From Myxococcota bacterium (lineage in GTDB: Bacteria; Myxococcota_A; Polyangia; Nannocystales; Nannocystaceae), in assembly GCA_039028615.1 (NCBI GenBank), contig JBCCHT010000005.1, forward strand, positions 224,001 to 288,000: DNA of 64,000 nucleotides, in the 5' to 3' direction. Shown piece after piece: positions 53,161 to 64,000 of this stretch; position 1 is the stretch's first letter; every line of letters begins with the position of its first letter. Position numbers and translations under genes: made by a program. Under the pieces are notes generated by a model. The model searched no databases, was not told the DNA's origin, and saw only the letters and a program-made list of their open reading frames with translations.

Positions 53161-53386
53161 CTAGTCAGGATCGGCGGTGATGCGGTCCCAGTCGACCTGC
53201 GCCTCGCGAAGCCGATCGCCCAGGTGCTGAATGACCGCCTGCACGCGTCGCGGAAGCAGACCGCGATGCGGATACACGGCGTACACGCCATAGCGCCCCG
53301 GGATCCGCCACTGTGGGAGCACGCGCACCAGCTCTCCACGCTCGAGGTACTCGTCGGCGATGACGGCGACAAGGCGCCGACCCCCG
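53161..53386 (-). pseudogene. Duplicated 3' fragment of the LysR gene (left direct repeat of the island)
   Basis: About 95% identical to 63612-63836; 1-nt deletion; no 5' part. Confidence 0.9.
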
Positions 53387-53390
53387 ACCC

Positions 53391-53495
53391 AATCCATCCA
53401 ACGGGACGAGCTCGAAGCGAGTGAGAACCGACGGCGGCGAACTCGAGCAGAAGGTGCCACGCGATCGCAACGGTACCGTCGAGCCTGAGCTCGTA
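53391..53495 (+). pseudogene. IS256-family transposase fragment
   Basis: NPSNGTSSKRVRTDGGELEQKVPRDRNGTVEPELV matches the IS256 RNG..K...T..G....VPRDR.G.FEP motif. Confidence 0.7.
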
Positions 53496-53937
53496 GTTCT
53501 ATGGCAGTGGAAGCGCTGCCAGGTCGGCGGCGCCAGTCATTCGCCTGGGTCCTGCTGGCCGGCCATCGTCTTTAAACCTTGGCCTCGCGGCAAATCGGCG
53601 GCCCTCGCAGGGTAAATAGCGCAAAGCTGAAGGCCCTCGAGTCATTGCGACCACCGGGAATGCGTAACTACGACTTCCGCGGTGACTAGTAGGGGCGAGG
53701 ATGACGACGCCGGTCGCGTGCCCAACGTTAGTCGGCGCCACCATATGCATCGATCGCCTTCTCGCACACTACAAAGCGAAGCTGTCAATGAAGGACTTTC
53801 GCGACGCGGATCGGGTGCTGTTTGCCGGGAAATCGTGATGGCCTCGATGGACCCGCCGCGTCAGACTCGCCCTCAGCTTCGCCGTTCGAGGCCGGCGTCG
53901 GCTTAGCAAGTGCACGTACCTCGCACCAAAGGCGGCC

Positions 53938-54198
53938 TCATGTGACAGCGTGACGGCTTCGTTTCGAACGCAACAGCGTCATCGCGAACTCGTGATCGAG
54001 ATCGTAGGCCGCGAACACGACTTCTCTTCGCATCCGCCCCAAGGTGAGGGAGTGCGACAATTGGCCCAGCTGCTGCCCCCGCGTGGACGTCCATTGACTT
54101 GTTGATCAATCGGCCTCGATCCCTCGGGACGTACTGACTCCCGGAATTCGGGCGCGGCGCTGGAGCCGAGCATCGACATCCGTGGATTCTAGTTGCAT
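53938..54198 (-). pseudogene. Possible decayed Ser/Thr kinase N-terminus
   Basis: RBS plus ATG, internal TGA, then GQQLGQL...LGRMRREVVFAAYDLDHEFAM resembling kinase subdomains I-II. Confidence 0.35.
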
Positions 54199-54231
54199 CG
54201 TCTCTCCGTTCTCCTGTTCTTTGCTCCCTAT

Positions 54232-55248
54232 TCAGGGGGGAACCGGTACGCCATCGAATGGCGAGATGTCCGCGTTTTCGGGCCTCTCCTGCTGAACGCA
54301 GCCCTCGTTCTTGGCGTATTTGATGTTCTTCCATGCAGTCGTAGACGTATGATCCGAAATTCCTCCCACCCAACCTCGGTATTGTGTCGGCCTGAATCCG
54401 AGCAGTAGAGCCTCATCTTCTTCCTCGACCTCAGGGGTGTCTGGTTGAAACGCAGGGGTGGCACTGCTGCTGCTGGTAGTCCTGTACTGATATCGTATAT
54501 CCAGCGGAAAACCAAGCATGTCGAAGGGGCGGCCTCCACCTATGAGATGGTCACAGTCTTTCACGTCTTCTTCAACGTAGAAACTCTTGATTCCGCCATG
54601 CCACATTATACATACATCCCCGAATGTCTCTTCTGTCGATTCTTCTGAGACGTTGTTCATCCCGCGTTCTGTTGTTGAAACTGAGACCCATACCTGCGAC
54701 CCTTCAGAGTACGTCTTGAAGTGATCGTAGGGATCTGCATTTTCTGTCAATTTCGGATTCTTCGAAGCCGCCATAAATCCGAATTTTTGCCATGAATTCG
54801 GGTGCCGCCCATCCACTCGGTAGAGCTCTGGAATGTCCAAGACACGACCTGATGACCTGCTTCCGCTGGCCTTCTGGCTGACCAAGTTCATCCATTGCCG
54901 TAGGTCGCATGCTCCAGGAGAGGAGTTTGAGGTCTCTAGATATTGTTCAAGGCTCGCGATCTGAGCCGTGTCGATCGATGGTGCTTCTCCGCTGACGACG
55001 ACGTCGTCCAAAACGAGATCGAGTACTTGTGCGGCTGCGTCTGCTACGCAGTCGGCCTTGAGCTCGTCACCTACGCATCTGCATTGTTCGTTGGCTCGGT
55101 TGACCACGAAATTTCCGAACCCGAACGACGTCCATCTCGTACTGGAGACGCTCGCTGGTGGCGCAGAGGGATCTCGAGTTGAATCGCAGCCGACGAGCGT
55201 TCCACAGGCAAGCATATATGATAATGCTGAGGTGAGAGATATTCGCAT
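54232..55248 (-). CDS. Lipoprotein with cholera/pertussis-toxin-like (R-S-E) ADP-ribosyltransferase domain
   Basis: Lipobox LVGC; LYRVDGRHP, GF, YDH, WVSVST and EEEDEALLLG..PTQYRGW motifs in canonical order. Confidence 0.72.
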   Translation of the reverse strand: MRISLTSALSYMLACGTLVGCDSTRDPSAPPASVSSTRWTSFGFGNFVVNRANEQCRCVGDELKADCVADAAAQVLDLVLDDVVVSGEAPSIDTAQIASLEQYLETSNSSPGACDLRQWMNLVSQKASGSRSSGRVLDIPELYRVDGRHPNSWQKFGFMAASKNPKLTENADPYDHFKTYSEGSQVWVSVSTTERGMNNVSEESTEETFGDVCIMWHGGIKSFYVEEDVKDCDHLIGGGRPFDMLGFPLDIRYQYRTTSSSSATPAFQPDTPEVEEEDEALLLGFRPTQYRGWVGGISDHTSTTAWKNIKYAKNEGCVQQERPENADISPFDGVPVPP

Positions 55249-55366
55249 GCGGTTCTCTTTCATTGGTGTCGGCATGACGATTGAACGGGCATCGCCGTTC
55301 TGAGCCTCCTTGATTGGGAAGCCGAGAGTGCCTAGTAAGTCGCGAATGCGGACCATGTCTATGCAG

Positions 55367-55772
55367 CGGAGGTTCTCAAACGAAATGAGACAGTACTGGT
55401 TGGAATGGACTGAATGTTCGGCGCGAGCTGCGCTTGCTGTTCCGTGGTGAGCGTCCTCGGTGCAGGCTTGTTGATCCGCACCGCGGTGGGAAGCGGCGAC
55501 GGCTTGGGCAGGCGTCGTGGGAAGCGTTCTGGATGAGCCTCGACGGCAGCGGCGAGTGCTTCGGCGCGCCGGCTCCACTTGTCCTGAGCGAGGCCGTGGT
55601 GGACGTCGTAGGGGGTCATGGGGCCGAGCGCGAAGTGGTAATGTTCATGGTTGTCACCGTCGACGAAGTCGCGGTTGTGGGCCTCGGTTTGCCCTGGTTT
55701 GTAGAAGCTTGCGGGGAATTCGGGGTAGTGCTTCAGCGTTTTGAGACGAAACTCGGGGTAGGGGTTGTCTGC
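55367..55772 (-). pseudogene. IS3-family transposase C-terminal relic with putative terminal end
   Basis: DNPYPE..LKTLKHYPEFP...NHEHYH..LG.MTP.DVH.G...HPERF....P..LPTAVRINKP; TGTCTCA...CCG end-like sequence at 55367-55392. Confidence 0.75.
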
Positions 55773-55918
55773 GATTCGGGTTCCGGTAGGACTCCCCAGA
55801 GCGAGACAGAGGAAACGCCTGAACGACTCGAGATCAGGGGTTCGATACGCGAGACCGTTGAGGAGCGCTGGGAAGTCCTGGATGATGAGCCTGCGCGCTC
55901 GAGGTCCTCACGTACGAA

Positions 55919-56082
55919 CTGCAGTCGAAGTACCTCGATGATTGCCCGCAGACGCAGCTGTCCTGGGTGTTCGCGGGGCAAGGGGTGGAGCTGCGCCGAA
56001 ACCACCTGGAGAATTGGGTGGCAGCGGCGGCATCTCTGCTCGACTCGCTGGCGGCGGATCCATGCATTCGCGGTGCTGTCTG
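55919..56082 (+). pseudogene. IS66-family TnpC fragment
   Basis: SKYLDDCPQTQLSWVFAGQGVELRRNHLENWVAAAASLL resembles IS66 KY.DH.PL.R...F...GV.L.R.TL..WV. Confidence 0.6.
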
Positions 56083-56481
56083 ATGTGTCGTAGTTCGACG
56101 AAACGCACCGGGAACGTTCTCGATCGTGACGCCTCGAAGAAACATCGAGCGGGAGCATCGATGAGGGCTGGTTGGCGACCAGGCCTTCGTGTCGTTTCGC
56201 TACACGGAGAAACTGGACCGCGCAGCTGGCCGACGGGTTCCCGGGGCGCGGTTTGGGTGGGTGCTGGTAGTCGGGTACGTGTGGGCCCATGGCCGGCGCT
56301 CGACCGCTTTCGTGGTCCTGATTCAGGACGGAGGTAGCGTTGAGCAGTACCAGAGCGCGGGAACGTGTTTCAGTAGGGTTTCGAGACCGAGCCGTCGCTG
56401 TTCGCTCAGTTCCCACGTTGCGCGAGCGCGCGACACCCTTGCGTTGCGTGGACGCGGTGAGAATGAAAGGATAGACGATGG

Positions 56482-59418
56482 ATGCGGTCGGGTGACGACC
56501 TTCATGGGGACGAGACGAGACCGTCGCATCGGGTCGCTGGCGCGCAGTTGCCCGCGGAGAGTACGCCAACCCGCACGCTGGCTCCTGCTAGTGAAGCTTC
56601 GGTGCCGTTGGACGCCAAAGCTCCACGCGAGTTGTTAGGCCACCGCATCGGCCGTTTCTCGGTGCTGGAGTTACTCGGCCGGGGTGGCATGGGGACGGTG
56701 GTCGCCGCCTACGATGAGCACCTCGACCGGAAGGTGGCGATCAAAGTCCTGCACGAGAATCGGGCGGGCGATGAGGATGACCAGCAACGACTGTGGCGAG
56801 AGGCACAGGCCCTTGCTCGCTTCTCACACCCGAACGTCGTGACGGTGCACGAGGTGGGGCGTCATCGCGGCGGGGTGTTCGTCGCGATGGAGTTCGTGCG
56901 AGGACAGAGTTTGGGGGCCTGGCAGCGTACGGAGCCCGGCTGGCGAGCCGTGCTCGACGCGTACGTGCAGGCAGGCCAGGGGCTCAAGGCCGCGCACGAA
57001 GTAGAGATGGTTCATCGTGATTTCAAGCCGAGCAACGTGATGCGGACGAAAGATGGCTTGGTGAAGGTGCTGGACTTCGGCCTGGCCCGACACGAGACCG
57101 ATGCGTCCCCCAAGGAACGAGTGTCCGAAATGGGGAGGCGCAGGCCGATATCGTCTTCGCTGACGGAATCGGACACGGTGGTGGGAACCCCACCCTACAT
57201 GGCACCCGAGCAGCATGACGGGGAGCACGTCGATGCACGCAGCGACCAGTACGGGTATTGCGTTGCGCTCTGGGAGGGCCTGACGGGCGCGCGGCCGTTT
57301 CTCGGAATCGATTTCGACGAACTGTTGGCGAACAAGCAGCAGGGAGCGCCGCGTTGGCCCACGGACGCCCCGGATGTTCCCCCGGTCGTCGTCCGAGCAT
57401 TGCAACGGGGTCTGTCGCCGAAGGCAGAGGATCGATGGCCGTCGATGGATGAACTCCTACGGGTTCTGCGTTGGGACCCGAGCCGTCGCCGGTGGCGTTG
57501 GGTGTTGGGCCTTTCCATCGTGGCGCTCGTGGGACTGGGTGGCACGACGGTCTTTGCTTGGGCGCAGGCCCGGGCTGAACGCTGCGGGGGTGCAAGGGCC
57601 AAGCTCGCGAGTATTTGGGACGACAGCCGCCGCGCCGAAGCCAAGACCGCAGTCCTGGGAGTCGACCGGCCCTACGCCCCGGACGTATGGAGTCGAACCG
57701 AGCAGGGGCTCGACACGTATGCCAGCGCATGGGTCGAGATGCACACCGAGGCCTGCGAAGCAACGACCGTGCGTGGCGAGCAGTCGCAACAGATGCTCGA
57801 CCTTCGAATGAGGTGCTTGCACCTTGCATCGGTTGATCTCCAAGCGACGGTTGATACGCTCGCGGACGCTGATCCGAATGTAGTGGACAAGGCCCACCAA
57901 CTGGTGGCGAAGCTACCACCGCTGTCACGCTGTGCAGACACCGGAATCCTGGAGACGAAGTTCGAGCTTCCGCTGCCTCATGAAGCAGAACGAGTGAAGC
58001 AAGCGCGCCAGCGGCTGGCACGATCCCGCAGCGAGCGAGCAGCAGGGCGCGCGACGGATGCTCTTGCCGAGATCGAGGCATTGACCCCCTTGCTCGATGA
58101 TGTGGAGTACGGCCCGGTGCAAGCACGGCGGGCTCTCGAGAGAGGCAGAGTGCTCGACGCGCTGGGCAAGTACGACGCAGCCGAAGTGGCGCTGACCAAG
58201 GCGCTTGAGCTTGCCTCGCGAGAGAAGCTCTGGGACGAGTTGGCTCTTGCCGCCGAGGAGTTGATGGTCCTCATTGGTTATGGCCAGCGGCGAATGGACG
58301 AAGGTTTGCGGTATTGGCCCATGGTCCAGGGGTTGTCCGAGAAGGATCCCGAGCGGTTTGCTTCCGCGCACAATAGCCTTGGGACCATCCTCAAGGCGCA
58401 GGGAAAGTACGAACAGGCCGAGACCGAACTTCGAGCCGCGCTGGCATCCTGGGAACGAGTGCCCGAACCTCATGAACTCGATGTCGCTCGAGTGCGCAAC
58501 AACCTCGGCGTCGTCTTCTTCTCGCAAGGGAAGTATGAGCAGGCTGTAGTCGAATACCGAGCCGCGCTCTCGTTGCGGGAAAAGGCTCTGGGACCCGGCC
58601 ACCCCGTGGTCGCAAGGTCGCGCAATAATCTCGGCGCGGCCTATTACTCGCAAGGGAAGCATGAGCAGGCCGAGATCGAGTATCGGTCCGCGCTTTTGTC
58701 ATGGGAAAACGCGTTGGGAGCAGGCCACCCTGACGTTGCAAGCGGGCGCAACAACCTTGGCGCCGTTCTCCAGAAACAGGGGAAGTACGAGCGGGCCGAG
58801 GTCGAGTTTCGAGCTGCGCTTTCGTCATGGGCAAAGACGCTGGGAGCGGAACACCCCGACGTTGCACGGGCGCGCAACAATCTTGGTACGGTTCTCGATA
58901 GGCAAGGGAAGTACGAAGAGGCCGAGGCTCAGCTTCGAGCCGCGGTGGCATCGTGGGAGAAAATGCCGGGTGCCGAAAAAACCGACGCCGGAGTCGCGCG
59001 CAAGAACCTAGGCCTGCTCCTCGAGAAACAGGGGAAGTACGAAGAGGCCGAAGTCGAGCTTCGAGCCGCCTTGGCCTCATGGGAAAAGAGCTTGGGAGCT
59101 GATCATCCCCACGTCGTCCCGTTGCTCGACAGTCTCGCTTCTTTGCTGCTGAGGGAGGGACGTATGGATGAGGCCTTGCAAGTCGTGAACAAAGCGTGGA
59201 CACGGCACCGAGAAGCCGGCGTCGAACCACACAAACGAGCACGGACTGCGTTCGTCCTCGCCCGAGTTCTGTGGTCCATCGAGGGGGCGGAGCAGGACCG
59301 AGCGCGCGCCCTAGACTTGGCTAAGGACGCCGCCGTATCCTATCGGGTCGCGACGGGCCAGCATGCGGAGGAATTGAAGGAGGTCGAGCAATGGCTCGAT
59401 CTCCATCGCGGACCCTGA
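56482..59418 (+). CDS. Ser/Thr protein kinase with TM segment and TPR repeats
   Basis: GRGGMG, VAIK, HRDFKPSN, DFG, GTPPYMAPE; about six 42-aa NNLG...QGKYE.AE repeats. Confidence 0.95.
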   Translation: MRSGDDLHGDETRPSHRVAGAQLPAESTPTRTLAPASEASVPLDAKAPRELLGHRIGRFSVLELLGRGGMGTVVAAYDEHLDRKVAIKVLHENRAGDEDDQQRLWREAQALARFSHPNVVTVHEVGRHRGGVFVAMEFVRGQSLGAWQRTEPGWRAVLDAYVQAGQGLKAAHEVEMVHRDFKPSNVMRTKDGLVKVLDFGLARHETDASPKERVSEMGRRRPISSSLTESDTVVGTPPYMAPEQHDGEHVDARSDQYGYCVALWEGLTGARPFLGIDFDELLANKQQGAPRWPTDAPDVPPVVVRALQRGLSPKAEDRWPSMDELLRVLRWDPSRRRWRWVLGLSIVALVGLGGTTVFAWAQARAERCGGARAKLASIWDDSRRAEAKTAVLGVDRPYAPDVWSRTEQGLDTYASAWVEMHTEACEATTVRGEQSQQMLDLRMRCLHLASVDLQATVDTLADADPNVVDKAHQLVAKLPPLSRCADTGILETKFELPLPHEAERVKQARQRLARSRSERAAGRATDALAEIEALTPLLDDVEYGPVQARRALERGRVLDALGKYDAAEVALTKALELASREKLWDELALAAEELMVLIGYGQRRMDEGLRYWPMVQGLSEKDPERFASAHNSLGTILKAQGKYEQAETELRAALASWERVPEPHELDVARVRNNLGVVFFSQGKYEQAVVEYRAALSLREKALGPGHPVVARSRNNLGAAYYSQGKHEQAEIEYRSALLSWENALGAGHPDVASGRNNLGAVLQKQGKYERAEVEFRAALSSWAKTLGAEHPDVARARNNLGTVLDRQGKYEEAEAQLRAAVASWEKMPGAEKTDAGVARKNLGLLLEKQGKYEEAEVELRAALASWEKSLGADHPHVVPLLDSLASLLLREGRMDEALQVVNKAWTRHREAGVEPHKRARTAFVLARVLWSIEGAEQDRARALDLAKDAAVSYRVATGQHAEELKEVEQWLDLHRGP

Positions 59419-59722
59419 ACTCGGTTGAGGATGCAGGCCCGAGACGTTGGTTCGGTGAGTTGGGGAACGCCGCGGCCCCGGTGGCGAACGTCGTAGTTAT
59501 GTGCATGGTCGTCGTGGATGCGACCAGTGTTTCTGAGAGGGAGCCACCTTCTCGCGGAGCTGGCCAAGGCGTAGTGCGCCACGCGTCGCGAACAACTGGA
59601 GCTGGTCGAGGTCAAGGAGCAGCGGCCGCTCGCCGGGGTTTTTTTGCAAAGAGGTGAGTAAATCGGGGCTGTGCAGTGACCTGTTGTGTGTCGTGGTCCT
59701 GCGACGCCGAAGTGACTGAACC

Positions 59723-60778
59723 ATGCTCGAGTTTCGTCTGTGCCTTCTTGCGCCGCTGCTGTCCGTGCCTCTGCTCGCCTGTTCGGAGGATAACCAAGCC
59801 GCGAATACCGCCGCTGACTCTGATAGTGGTGACTCGGTCGCCACGGCTGCAGCAACGGCCGCAAGCACCGGCGCCTCACCAACTACGGCTGGGTCGACGA
59901 CCGGTGTGGTGCCCGACGATACCGACTCGGTGGACACCAGCGGCGATCCCGTCGACGAACCGGTCGATACCACTGCGACTATCCCCGACTTCGTATTCGA
60001 CCTTGGCGAGATCCCCGATGCTCCCGCTATCGATGAGGAGTGTGGTGAGGTCGATTTTCTGTTTGTCATCGACAACTCGGGCAGCATGGGCGACGAGCAG
60101 GCCAACCTCGTGGCCAATTTTCCCGCATTCATCGATGGGATCCAAAACAGCCTCGAAGACGTCGAGAGCTATCACGTGGGAGTGGTCACGACCGACGCGT
60201 ACTCGGACAACATCGCCGGCTGCCGACAATTGAGTTCGTTGGTGGTACAGACCGGCGGATCCAGTTCCAGCAACGCTATGTGTGGTCCCTATTTCGAGGG
60301 CAACAACTACATGACGGAGATGGACGATCTCGCTACGGCGTTCAGCTGTGCGGCGCAGATCGGTACCTCCGGCGACGCAACCGAGCGTGCCATGCAGGCT
60401 GTCGTCGAGACGGTCACGGGGGTGGAAGCCGACCCCGGTGAGTGTAACTTCGGGTTCCTACGCGAAGAGGCCTTGCTCGTCATCGTGATCATCACTGATG
60501 AGCCCGATAACACGTCCCTCGGTACGCCGATGACCTGGTTCGATGATGTCGTAGCAGCCAAGGCCGGTATCTCCGAGAACATCGTGGTGCTATCTTTGGT
60601 CAACACGCCCGGAGGGGCATGTCCTGGTGGCGACGCGAACAACATGGCCGCGTTCACCATGATGTTCGGGGACAATGACTTTATGGCCGACATCTGTGCG
60701 CCCGATTTCATGCCGGTATTCAACGAGGCGATCGGCGTCATCGACGTTGCTTGCGAGAACTTCATTCCGCCCAACTAG
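59723..60778 (+). CDS. vWA-like lipoprotein
   Basis: Lipobox LLAC; VDFLFVIDNSGSM, GVVTTD, IITDEPD. Confidence 0.85.
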   Translation: MLEFRLCLLAPLLSVPLLACSEDNQAANTAADSDSGDSVATAAATAASTGASPTTAGSTTGVVPDDTDSVDTSGDPVDEPVDTTATIPDFVFDLGEIPDAPAIDEECGEVDFLFVIDNSGSMGDEQANLVANFPAFIDGIQNSLEDVESYHVGVVTTDAYSDNIAGCRQLSSLVVQTGGSSSSNAMCGPYFEGNNYMTEMDDLATAFSCAAQIGTSGDATERAMQAVVETVTGVEADPGECNFGFLREEALLVIVIITDEPDNTSLGTPMTWFDDVVAAKAGISENIVVLSLVNTPGGACPGGDANNMAAFTMMFGDNDFMADICAPDFMPVFNEAIGVIDVACENFIPPN

Positions 60779-61438
60779 CGCCGAGCTCGAGATCTGTTTT
60801 GCCGGCGACCGGTGCCCAACCAAGTACGGCGTACGACGACTGCATCTTTGTCGATGTAGTCCTCCGGCGAAGCAGCAGCCTCGCCGGGGGATTGAAGGCC
60901 TGCGACGGAGTCGCACGGGCTGTTTCGAGGTCTTCGGCCGTGGGGCGCTTTTTCGACACTGTTTGCGCAGAACGATGTTCGGGGGGGGCGCAGCCGAGGA
61001 AAATGAAGAATCTTCGTCGGTCTGCGTAATCGGCCTCGGCACCGTGACTCTACGTTCACGATGACGAGACGTGCGTAGCGTTGGCACTTGCTGGTTCTGA
61101 AGCCCTCCAGCGCAAGCGAAAACCCCAATATTTCGTTGTGGCAACGTGCCGACCCTGCGGCGCAAAAGGTGCGACCGAGCCGAGTAAAACCACGAGCAAA
61201 CTTGGGCCCATCTCAGTCTCCGGGCTCGGCGAACGGATCCACAGCGACACGGGCGAGCTGATGCGGTCTTCAGGGCAGAGGGGCGGCCACTCGGTGATGG
61301 CGCCGACAACCCCTTCGCGGGTTGTACTCGGGCCAACAAAACCCGCCCGACTGGATTCCCGTGACGAGTCACGCGTGCCCATCCCGTCATCGGTCTTTTT
61401 CGCGAGACGTTTCAAAACAACTAAATAGAGACTCAACA

Positions 61439-62830
61439 ATGAAAAGAACCTCAATCTGCCCCCTCCTACTCTCTTTTGCCTGGCCTCTGATCGGATGTAC
61501 CGGAGAACCGCCCGACGGTAACGCCGACGACGGTGAGTCGGTGTCGACCGATTCGAGCGGTTCGACCGGAAACCCACTCGAAACCACGTCGACGGGCCCG
61601 GTGACCAGCGGGGAAAGCGACGGAACAGATAGCGATTCGGATGCCTCGTCTTCGGGCAATGCCGACTCGAGCAGCAGCGGAGGAGAAGATCCCCCCGAGC
61701 CCCCGCGGGAGCCGGGGGTGTTGCCCGACCCGCCGGAGAACTGCGCAGTCGACTTTCTGGAGTTCCCAATTGCTCAGGACTTCAGCTTCTTCGAACCGGA
61801 GGCCTTTTCGATCGGCACGGGAGCAGAGGTCGCCGTCCTTGGCACTCGGTTCGACGTGCAAGACTTCGCCAATATCATCACTTCATCCGAGGTTCTCTAT
61901 GGGACCTTTCAAGATGGGCCAATCTGGTCGCGGACGGTCCACGATGAAGACCAGACCGCGTTTCTGACGTCCATTGCCGTGTTGCCGTCGAGCGACGTCG
62001 CGTTGAGCTTCTCAACCCTCTTCACCAGCGAAGTCCAGGCGCTTCGCGGGTCTGACGGCGAGCTTCTCCTGAGGGAGGCGCCAGCGTACCTACGCGAGGT
62101 GGCTGCACTGCCCCGCGCGACTTCCTTCGCCGGAATAGCGGAGGGACTCTCGGCGGAGGGAGACTCTGACGGGGCGGTCGTTCGAATCGCGATGGATGGA
62201 AGCTGGGAAGGTGAAGGGTTTCCATTTGGCGGAGAAGATGAGGACGCGGGGATGTTCTTGCGACTCGACACCGACGGTCGGGGCATAGCGGTTGCGGCCA
62301 GTCGGACCTCGGGTTTCGGTTCAGAGGTCGGTTGGTGGTCGAACGACGTCGATTTCGCTCTGGGCGGGTCCCCGCTAACGCTTCCGAGCACATTTCATCC
62401 TGGCCCAGATTTCCTACGTGATGCGGCGTTCGATCCTGTGACGCGCGTCCTGTACGTGTTCGCAGAGACTTCCTACACCAGCGAATCCTACTTTGTCGCC
62501 GCCTACGATGAAGACCATCAACTTCTTTGGCAGGAAGCGTCACCGTGGTCACAACAAAGAGGCGTGGGAGTGGACGATGCTGGGCGCCCGTGGGCGGCCG
62601 GGCGTGACGAAACTACGGACTCGTTGAAGGTCTGGGCTTTGTCCAACGACGGTTTTTCGACGGTCTACGAGCAAGGTGATGGGAGCGGCGTGCTGGCCGA
62701 CGGCTTCGGTTTTCCTCAGTATCTCGAGGTTGGACCGTCAGGAAACATCTTTGTCATGTCACTCCAGCCTCCGCCAGACCCAAGCCAATTTGCAGAGACT
62801 CTCCAGGTTGCGCGAATCGACTGCGACTGA
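61439..62830 (+). CDS. Lipoprotein with Ser/Thr-rich linker and probable beta-propeller
   Basis: Lipobox LIGC; repeated beta-strand motifs. Confidence 0.7.
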   Translation: MKRTSICPLLLSFAWPLIGCTGEPPDGNADDGESVSTDSSGSTGNPLETTSTGPVTSGESDGTDSDSDASSSGNADSSSSGGEDPPEPPREPGVLPDPPENCAVDFLEFPIAQDFSFFEPEAFSIGTGAEVAVLGTRFDVQDFANIITSSEVLYGTFQDGPIWSRTVHDEDQTAFLTSIAVLPSSDVALSFSTLFTSEVQALRGSDGELLLREAPAYLREVAALPRATSFAGIAEGLSAEGDSDGAVVRIAMDGSWEGEGFPFGGEDEDAGMFLRLDTDGRGIAVAASRTSGFGSEVGWWSNDVDFALGGSPLTLPSTFHPGPDFLRDAAFDPVTRVLYVFAETSYTSESYFVAAYDEDHQLLWQEASPWSQQRGVGVDDAGRPWAAGRDETTDSLKVWALSNDGFSTVYEQGDGSGVLADGFGFPQYLEVGPSGNIFVMSLQPPPDPSQFAETLQVARIDCD

Positions 62831-62831
62831 G

Positions 62832-63273
62832 TCACTCGGGCTCGAGAACGCGAACACGGGTCGGCCCAGGTCTTGCGTGACGCCCTCCTCGCCAGGGCCG
62901 AGTGGTCCACCCCGCGTTGGCTCGTTCGGTGCGCATGTACTCCTGGGTCCTCCGCTTGCTGACGCGGATACCCAGCCTCAGCCGATCTCCGCAGATCCGC
63001 TCGGAACCCCACAATCGGCTTCGACTAGAAGCGGGTGCTCGTCGCCCGACCCACCAGGAACTCGCGATCGAGCTTGGTCAGCAGCAGGCGCTTCGTTCTG
63101 CGCTCGAGGACCACGAGTTGATGCCGGAGCAGCGCGTTCCCTGCGATCAATCCGTGGCGCGTTCGAGCCAGATCCACCAGCGCACCAGAGATACGGCGCG
63201 GCCGACTCAGCGCTCGTGCGAGCCCAAGCGCTCGGGTTGCTACGGCGCGCATGACTTCTCGAAGCCCGGCCAA
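62832..63273 (-). pseudogene. Integrase-core-domain transposase relic (frameshifted, internally deleted)
   Basis: DLARTR..LIAGNALLRHQL.VL.R and WGSERI.G..LRLGIRVSKR..Q.YM segments in different frames. Confidence 0.7.
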
Positions 63274-63301
63274 CCTCGGGGTATCCGAGCCTTGCCGTCG
63301 T

Positions 63302-63372
63302 CTATCGTCAACGAAGCGTGCAGCTTCTCGAAATCACTCGTGGATGAACGAGGTCGCCAGCACGCCTTGGTC
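63302..63372. repeat. Dispersed 72-bp element, copy 2
   Basis: About 85% identical to 15112-15183; lies just upstream of the integrase relic. Confidence 0.85.
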
Positions 63373-63609
63373 GTGCAGCGGCATCAGCAAGGGAATGGTG
63401 GAGGTGCCTTCGTGCTGCGGACACGTCGCGCATCGTAGGTGCGGCCGACGTACACCTGGAGCCGCGTGGCCATCTTGCGATTGGGCGTGGACAGGTGCTC
63501 CATGAGCACATGGACCAAGGCCGGCCGCTTGGATTGCCGCAGGGCGCCCGAGTCGAGGGATGTCGGTGTGTCGAGGCCGGAGGGCTGGGTCCGCACGGCG
63601 ATCGACCCG

Positions 63610-64000
63610 TCAGTCAGGATCGGCGGTGATGCGGTCCCAGTCGACCTGCGCCTCGCGAAGCCGATCGCCCAGGTGCTGAATGACCGCCTGCACGCGCCGC
63701 GGAAGCAGGCCACGATGCGGATACACGGCGTACACCCCGTAGCGCCCGGGGATCCGCCACTGCGGCAGCACGCGCACCAGCTCTCCGCGCTCGAGGTACT
63801 CGTCGGCGATGAACGGCGACAAGGCACCGACCCCCGCGCCGTATCGCACCGCCTGCAGCACGACGTCGGCATTGTCGGTGCTCAGCACCGAGCCCACGCG
63901 CAGCTCGAGGTGCTCCTCGCCGTGCATGAACTCCCACTGGTCCGCGCGGTTGCTCGCGTCGTAGAGCACCCAGTGGTCGATGAGGTCTTCGGGGTGCTGT
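63610..64000 (-). CDS. LysR family regulator (3' part; runs off the window)
   Basis: AVRYGAGVGAL..FIA..YL..GELVRVLP.W...VYAVYP.R..LP.RV substrate-binding domain end. Confidence 0.9.
   Translation of the reverse strand, partial: QHPEDLIDHWVLYDASNRADQWEFMHGEEHLELRVGSVLSTDNADVVLQAVRYGAGVGALSPFIADEYLERGELVRVLPQWRIPGRYGVYAVYPHRGLLPRRVQAVIQHLGDRLREAQVDWDRITADPD

Follow-up and report, generated by a model that had tools for sequence, protein, structure and literature searches.

The window analyzed here, a 64,000-nucleotide stretch of DNA, contains a gene for a lipoprotein-type protein of 338 amino acids (P0001), the C-terminal part of which very probably has an ADP-ribosyltransferase (ART) fold, as judged from its structural model. 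The best explanation, which we hold with about even confidence, is that the protein is a divergent mono-ART of the R-S-ExE type, i.e., a horizontally acquired orphan toxin cassette that is carried on a lipoprotein signal and would act outside its producer. The host genome has 65 MYXO-CTERM matches and is that of a myxobacterium. The positions of the features are given in Table 1.

The ORF is read from the minus strand (55248..54232), a point absent from the earlier note on this DNA, and its translation contains all the motifs quoted in that note: MRISLTSALSYMLACGTLVG|C21, LYRVDGRHP, PYDH, WVSVSTT, and EEEDEALLLGFRPTQYRGW. The catalytic set proposed there was correct for the R and ExE elements and incorrect for S-T-S, as the middle motif reads S-V-S. 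The middle region of about 120 aa was also recovered; 120 aa separate C21 from the ART motif, and this linker holds four Cys. Two more distant start codons, which would give 374 and 448 aa, were discarded, since these versions extend into an insertion sequence (IS) remnant and bury the signal. In agreement with the lower GC and the island location described earlier, the GC content of the gene is 53.1% (GC3 56%), compared with 68.3% for the 12.27-Mb genome; a GC content this low was found in 0.11% of 24,389 genome segments of the same length, and the four flanking genes outside the island have GC3 values of 82–91%. The DNA is contained in a single sequencing run, labelled marine metagenome and possibly the source, of which one contig spans 53218-56206 with zero differences, and no RNA run containing the ART gene DNA is listed. 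Among the 42 neighboring ORFs of ≥ 35 aa inspected by eye between 53380 and 56480, no B-subunit-like or immunity-like ORF was visible, as had been stated before. A Pfam scan of two flank fragments gave one LysR fragment and one blank.

Table 1. Positions of the features of the ART gene, its island, and the pilin loci (window positions unless a locus is named).
Feature	Position	Strand	Basis or remark
Predicted Sec/SPII signal peptide, residues 1-20, plus Cys21	55186..55248	-	Lipobox L-V-G-C, +2 Asp; pattern only
Cys-containing helical linker domain, residues 22-137 (C56, C58, C67, C114)	54838..55185	-	Model helices 41-55, 61-79, 94-103, 116-127
CT/PT-class ART domain (predicted), residues ~138-312	54313..54837	-	Foldseek, VIA wide and second look, weak Pfam, ESM Atlas
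RxDxR motif (Y143-R144-V-D146-G-R148), predicted NAD+-binding Arg	54805..54822	-	5/5 covering relatives; R144 on strand 142-146
W-V-S189-V-S191 motif (S-x-S)	54676..54690	-	S189 and S191 kept in 6 covering sequences; strand 188-191
Inserted beta-hairpin between C213 and C232	54553..54612	-	Cys 7/7; strands 212-217, 222-226
E277-D-E279, predicted catalytic ExE	54412..54420	-	Invariant 7/7; E279 starts strand 279-282
10.2-kb island	53387..63611		GC 61.1% vs 67.5% on left
Left island boundary, displaced LysR 3'-end copy	53163..53386	-	95.1% over 225 nt to 63612-63836; Pfam LysR_substrate
Right island boundary, 3' end of intact 324-aa LysR gene	63612..63836	-	225-nt duplication
Internal transposase fragment at left junction	53373..53494	+	84% to 403-aa G004 ORF and to G000:C50
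IS transposase 3' remnant with integrase core	55366..55769	-	78% over 405 nt to G001 ORF
Second IS remnant	55815..56279		73-78% to G000:C49, inside 521-aa ORF
TadE-like prepilins with variable tips	L005:8001-10160, L006:7947-9488, L007:7953-10070, L041		

The structural evidence comes from a full-length model of medium confidence (pLDDT 61, pTM 0.62, 2 of 5 models); a domain-only model reached a pLDDT of 34. In the full-length model, R144, S189-S191, and E279 each occupy a strand of their own, in the canonical order. When it was checked with Foldseek, as the earlier note had proposed, each of the 18 rows shown of ranks 1-21 belonged to pertussis S1, EcPltA, or cholera A. The lowest E value was 2.2e-3 (probability 0.99), so that none reached 0.001, and the first unrelated row had an E value of 0.11. 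In the VIA search over 48,161 chains, ranks 1-7 were likewise all ARTs, namely TreX, scabin, EcPltA, pierisin, pertussis, LT, and CARDS. The top match, TreX (Z 6.0, rmsd 3.0, 111 residues aligned), stood within 1 Z of scabin, EcPltA, pierisin, and PT, in effect a tie, the first unrelated row stood at Z 4.4, and no match reached Z 8. A second look with VIA showed ARTs in all 30 rows displayed. The identity in structural alignments with ARTs of the cholera/pertussis toxin (CT/PT) class was 9–20%. A Z below 8 is weak alone; we regard the agreement of two aligners on one enzyme class as the evidence. Together with the conserved motifs described below, these top matches support the assignment to the CT/PT (R-S-ExE) class made in the earlier note.

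The family to which the protein belongs is small. A set of 5.8 billion sequences yielded one relative, P0003, with 47% identity to P0001 over 99% of the length, and 1.84 billion representatives yielded five matches, four of them real; P0010 was dropped as a repeat artefact. A profile search added P0012, giving a family of seven proteins. The lipoprotein forms P0003 and P0007 are collinear with P0001 at 44–47% identity. E277, E279, C213, and C232 are invariant in all seven aligned sequences, and the residues beside E277 and E279 vary. RxDxR, including R144, was kept in each of the five relatives that cover the region, and S189 and S191 in all six sequences that cover them; the catalytic set is conserved over a range of 26–47% identity. 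RxDxR, S, and E are the signature of the Tox-ART-RSE group (PMC3482391). Of the 73 genomes of the order, which comprises a single family (presumably Nannocystaceae), one carries the ART gene. Searches of 100 relatives, 400 genomes of the phylum, and the 72 other members of the order did not recover it, and the genome, metagenome, viral contig, and plasmid sets yielded no cassette loci. In the host genome itself, a stretch of 53-58 aa (G000:C26:197906-198079; L002, L040) is similar to the C-terminal region of the ART (profile E 1.5e-5); it lacks the ExE and lies in a patch of 52–54% GC among lipoprotein-like ORFs. It is possibly a decayed second ART copy.

The same cassette occurs on a second export module. 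It stands behind a lipobox in three proteins (P0001, P0003, and P0007) and behind a TadE-like prepilin in two (P0009 and P0012), the ART part of which matched with an hhalign probability of 97.8% (E 8.7e-13). The linkers of the lipobox and TadE-fused forms are weakly homologous (hhalign E 2e-4, probability 47%), and in a comparison of the linker with 11 TadE fusions, only P0009 and P0012 reached E ≤ 0.01. Pfam TadE matched P0009 with an E value of only 0.25, and relatives are labelled 'Flp pilus assembly protein TadG'. When the pilin part was searched against proteins 286-910 aa long, 11 of 3,811 candidates were returned, which carried the following tips: the cassette ART in two, a scabin/pertussis-like ART in one, DUF7587 in one (P0019), and an XOO_2897 deaminase in two (P0020 over the cut-off, P0018 under it); four others had no match to a toxin family, and one had no tip. 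The scabin/pertussis-like ART tips were those of P0015 (E 3e-17) and L006 (E 2e-13). The prepilin motif G|AxxxE was present in 10 of the 10 sequences checked from this group (P0009, P0012-P0021, and the L loci). A CD38-like reading of the P0016 tip found no support in the PDB.

In the named genomes, long tips were found in three of seven pilin loci, all from Polyangiaceae or Myxococcales MAGs, and one MAG holds two different tips (L006 and L007). At L007, a TadA-type ATPase is encoded on the opposite strand at a distance of about 5 kb, with pilin-like ORFs in between. Most pilins have no such tip: among 73 TadE-like matches in the 383 genomes belonging to the family of G499, 4 lie in frames of > 500 aa, and the cassette ART part had no match in these genomes with three candidates scored per genome. 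The myxobacterial tie concerns the pilin module of P0009 and P0012, not these two proteins themselves. The C-termini of L005, L007, L041, and P0017 have H/C-x-E ... PCxxC motifs, which we take to suggest deaminase tips; Pfam gave no match for the tips of L005, L007, and P0017. Directly 3' of the L005 and L007 pilins with their putative deaminase tips, the two loci have lipoprotein-like ORFs that are related to each other and match nothing in Pfam (L005:10157-10801 and L007:9989-10717), possibly immunity or partner genes.

Because one cassette is found on two export modules, and the pilin module in turn carries other tips, the domain has the behavior of a polymorphic-toxin tip, which in the window gene is carried on a lipid anchor. 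Judging from these arrangements, the gene most probably encodes a mobile toxin tip that has been placed on a lipobox. The lipobox-linker module was not found with other tips among the 1.84 billion representatives. The N-terminal region was not seen as an escort shared with other toxin tips, as had been envisaged; it travels with the cassette ART.

The lipoprotein signal that had been read from the sequence is predicted from the pattern at C21 and recurs in all three lipoprotein forms, which share a hydrophobic h-region and the residues VG|CD. The +2 residue is Asp in each of them. In Escherichia coli, +2 Asp is an inner-membrane retention signal; no such role is known for it in Myxococcus xanthus, according to the available text of PMC3222651, which reports +2 Lys and +7 Ala as the lipoprotein signals of that species. 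P0001 has neither. The outer-membrane anchoring proposed in the earlier note was therefore not established, given an E. coli inner-membrane signal in three of three forms. A crude lipobox survey found +2 Asp in 91 of 803 matches, a number too noisy for conclusions on membrane sorting. All seven Cys of the mature protein are kept in all three lipoprotein forms; this would suit folding in an oxidizing compartment, and C213 and C232 probably form a disulfide in the inserted hairpin.

The mechanism that we propose follows from these features. The protein would be exported by Sec/SPII and then lipidated at C21, as the lipobox suggests, and would fold and form its disulfides in the envelope, apart from the cytosolic NAD+ and the targets of the producer. 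Such folding would make an immunity gene unnecessary, which is consistent with the conservation of seven Cys and with the absence of an immunity ORF. The enzyme would next be displayed on the envelope or on vesicles, for which NarE offers a precedent without a B subunit, and would reach an NAD+-containing compartment of another organism, be it prey, competitor, or grazer, through contact with or lysis of prey, vesicle uptake, or ingestion by a grazer. There it would transfer ADP-ribose to arginine. ExE is typical of Arg-modifying ARTs (PMC11606950; PMC3000352), and the E-D-E of the window protein points to arginine as probably the modified residue. As regards delivery, no entry domain is apparent in the protein, and the TadE and Flp pilin models had no match in the host genome, in searches that included a positive control; vesicles, lysis, or ingestion remain as routes. 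VipB sheath matches in the host genome (G000:C19:4-684 and C34:144590-144943) indicate a type VI secretion system (T6SS). A lipoprotein is not expected as T6SS cargo.

The anchor and the missing entry domain would also fit an enzyme that stays where it is made. The protein could be a lipid-anchored, disulfide-bonded ExE ecto-enzyme at the surface of the producer, working on NAD+ from lysed prey either by hydrolyzing it or by ADP-ribosylating Arg-rich extracellular peptides, as in the analogous case of the vertebrate GPI-anchored ecto-ARTs. The missing immunity gene would suit such an enzyme as well, and TraA, TadE, and Flp were not found in the genome searches. NarE, which has no B subunit, both hydrolyzes NAD and modifies Arg (PMC4440719). 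However, the same cassette occurs on pilins that bear deaminases among their other tips, and deaminases need a cytosolic target; furthermore, presence in a single genome of the order is unlike a housekeeping scavenger. We consider the ecto-enzyme reading unlikely, but the most probable of the alternatives.

The genomic context bears on whether the toxin cassette is in use at all. Besides the ART lipoprotein, the 10.2-kb island contains a Ser/Thr kinase-TPR protein, a VWA lipoprotein, a further lipoprotein-like ORF, and IS scraps; no intact integrase was seen inside it. The left LysR copy carries a 1-nt deletion and stops at the LysR stop codon, and the duplication ends there exactly, as if LysR were the integration site. 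The remnant next to the ART gene (55366..55769), which we take to be of the IS3 type, matches an ORF with Pfam rve/rve_3 that adjoins an HTH_Tnp_1 ORF; the second remnant (55815..56279) is presumably IS66-like, a label taken from the matching ORF, and the fragment at the left junction (53373..53494) presumably IS256-like. No joint skipping the island was present in the contigs of the DNA run, which cannot show absence, and in the loci seen no relative from the genus keeps the AraC beside the LysR of the island. The VWA lipoprotein (59723-60778) has weak similarity to CglD and MIDAS adhesins and has many paralogs in the genome and genus, and the 463-aa lipoprotein-like ORF (61439-62830; GC3 67%) has no significant Pfam or NCBIfam match. 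By its composition and surroundings, the ART gene appears to be a recent orphan among IS scraps that was acquired horizontally.

It might, accordingly, be a silent passenger: a genuine ART cassette brought in by IS activity, severed from its promoter and partners, and unused by the host. The integrase-core remnant ends only 118 nt before the start codon of the ART gene, no match to a sigma-70-type promoter was found upstream, the codon use is unameliorated, the 72 relatives in the order have no detected copy, and the weak 53-aa fragment elsewhere in the genome, with its ExE missing, suggests that the cassette can decay. Against this, the frame is unbroken over all 338 aa, with the signal, every Cys, and every catalytic residue in place, and the protein aligns along its length with two other lipoprotein forms that have diverged to less than half identity. 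A passenger role is improbable on this evidence, and we retain the toxin cassette as the preferred reading.

A more basic doubt, that the motifs and fold matches are coincidental or the enzyme dead, draws on the scores of the individual searches. Every sequence-level score was below threshold. Pfam gave Scabin-like at E 0.0083, which is below the cut-off, the NCBIfam search with P0001 gave no match, and nothing relevant was found in the PDB by sequence (phmmer with P0001 and a six-sequence profile). An ART-only hhalign comparison with scabin-like tips gave a probability of 1.3%, below the best of 60 shuffles. The ESM Atlas leads for P0001 reached only 0.77-0.79, under 0.9, and there was nothing for the C-terminal part of P0009. 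PF22596 was silent in the host genome and in controls alike and was therefore uninformative. The strict published pattern, [YFL]R-x(27,60)-[YF]xST[SQT]-x(32,78)-[QE]xE (PMC3000352), was matched by none of the five cassette proteins tested, and it was matched by the scabin-like P0015. P0001 departs from it in having W for Y/F, V for T, and a spacing of 85. In the cassette proteins, the spacing from the S motif to the ExE is 79–87, which is longer because the Cys-bounded hairpin is inserted. The STS is described as not strictly required (PMC3000352). No [DN]xN motif was present between S and E in P0001, P0003, P0009, and P0012, and P0007 has one unconserved DPN. A post hoc pattern built from the cassette sequences matched 1 of 40,790 genome frames, which demonstrates specificity only. 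Since they do not match the strict pattern, we regard the cassette proteins as a divergent, unnamed R-S-E subfamily. Two different structure aligners rank the same enzyme class at the top, few columns of the alignment are conserved and these include R, S, S, E, and E, and the model has these residues in the expected order on the strands where they should be; a coincidental or dead ART is therefore very unlikely.

The earlier note had suggested SitA-like delivery through TraAB outer-membrane exchange. TraA (TIGR04566) was not found in the 96.7%-complete host genome or in any of 60 relatives of the family, and the model was positive in 4 of the 101 genomes searched; two TraA-like proteins from the positive genomes had no phmmer match in the host genome. 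The available part of the traAB table of PMC6372800 names Haliangium, and Nannocystis, Enhygromyxa, and Plesiocystis do not appear there. SitA loci are described as always having sitI and an escort of ~375 aa (PMC8546572); by length, the 120-aa linker is about one third of that escort. A kin-discrimination toxin passed on in this manner would suit a lipoprotein with a C-terminal toxin-like domain on a mobile island of a myxobacterium, but with TraA undetected in the host family, no sitI-like ORF, and a linker this short, we give it hardly any weight, and the delivery route suggested earlier is not supported.

On a broader and more speculative level, which we regard as less probable than not yet worth stating, myxobacteria may have an undescribed surface-display polymorphic toxin system in which TadE minor pilins carry interchangeable enzyme tips (two kinds of ART, deaminases, and unknown domains) that also hop onto lipoboxes. 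The window gene would be one such hop, a new Arg-specific ART subfamily without an immunity gene, a B subunit, or TraAB, directed against prey or grazers. Which toxin is delivered by the Tad/Kil pili of predatory myxobacteria is described as an open question (PMC8460266; PMC12075869), and the Kil toxin was undiscovered as of 2021 (PMC8460266). The pilins that bear ART or deaminase domains as covalent tips are named and testable Tad/Kil toxin candidates; if the surface-display reading is true, candidate toxins have been named for contact killing by Tad pili. These tipped pilins are rare and were found in myxobacterial lineages other than that of the host. The window gene adds a divergent CT/PT-class subfamily missed by Pfam, NCBIfam, and the published pattern, and the new element is one cassette common to a pilin and a lipid anchor, together with a pilin module that bears other tips as well. 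The weight of the gene itself is limited by its rarity (seven proteins, one genome of the order). In the literature seen, no myxobacterial lipoprotein ART or TadE-tipped polymorphic toxin is described; ART tips may be listed in the supplements of surveys on SitA and on polymorphic toxins.

Several known systems resemble parts of this picture. The Kil/Tad system of M. xanthus has minor tip pilins with extended C-termini, one tip complex being toxic alone (PMC12075869), Flp pilins are listed among the carriers of CD38-like toxin domains, or ARC toxins (PMC12605009), and Amoebophilus APD1/APD2 are lipobox-anchored effectors with polymorphic C-termini (PMC3482391). The available portions of these accounts contain no series of TadE proteins with ART and deaminase tips and no cassette shared between a pilin and a lipobox. 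The AB5 holotoxins (cholera and pertussis) have linked B-subunit genes, whereas the window gene is flanked only by IS and LysR scraps. SitA toxins are lipoproteins encoded on mobile DNA that end in a toxin-type domain, an arrangement predicted for the window protein too; however, SitA is described with the escort, sitI, and nuclease tips, and the window protein has neither escort nor sitI in a genome where no TraA was found. By the tests made, the window protein is a member of neither group. The TreX/TreTu Rhs C-terminal ARTs are antibacterial T6SS toxins, and TreX, the best VIA match, is an R-S-ExE enzyme that modifies FtsZ (PMC11606950). TreX is delivered by Rhs, has no Cys, and has an immunity gene, in contrast to the Cys-rich lipoprotein without an immunity gene found here. 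NarE of Neisseria meningitidis is an exported Arg-modifying ART without a B subunit for which vesicle delivery has been proposed (PMC4440719); the likeness is one of description. NarE is a 16-kDa protein with no leader peptide, and a lipobox plus linker domain are present in the window protein. Compared with the CT/PT-like R-S-E ARTs (cholera/LT A1, pertussis S1, EcPltA, scabin, pierisin, and CARDS), the window protein has S-V-S for S-T-S, no [DN]xN, a Cys-bounded hairpin insert, a predicted lipid anchor, and no B subunit; it shares with them the order of RxDxR, S-x-S, and ExE and very probably the fold class.
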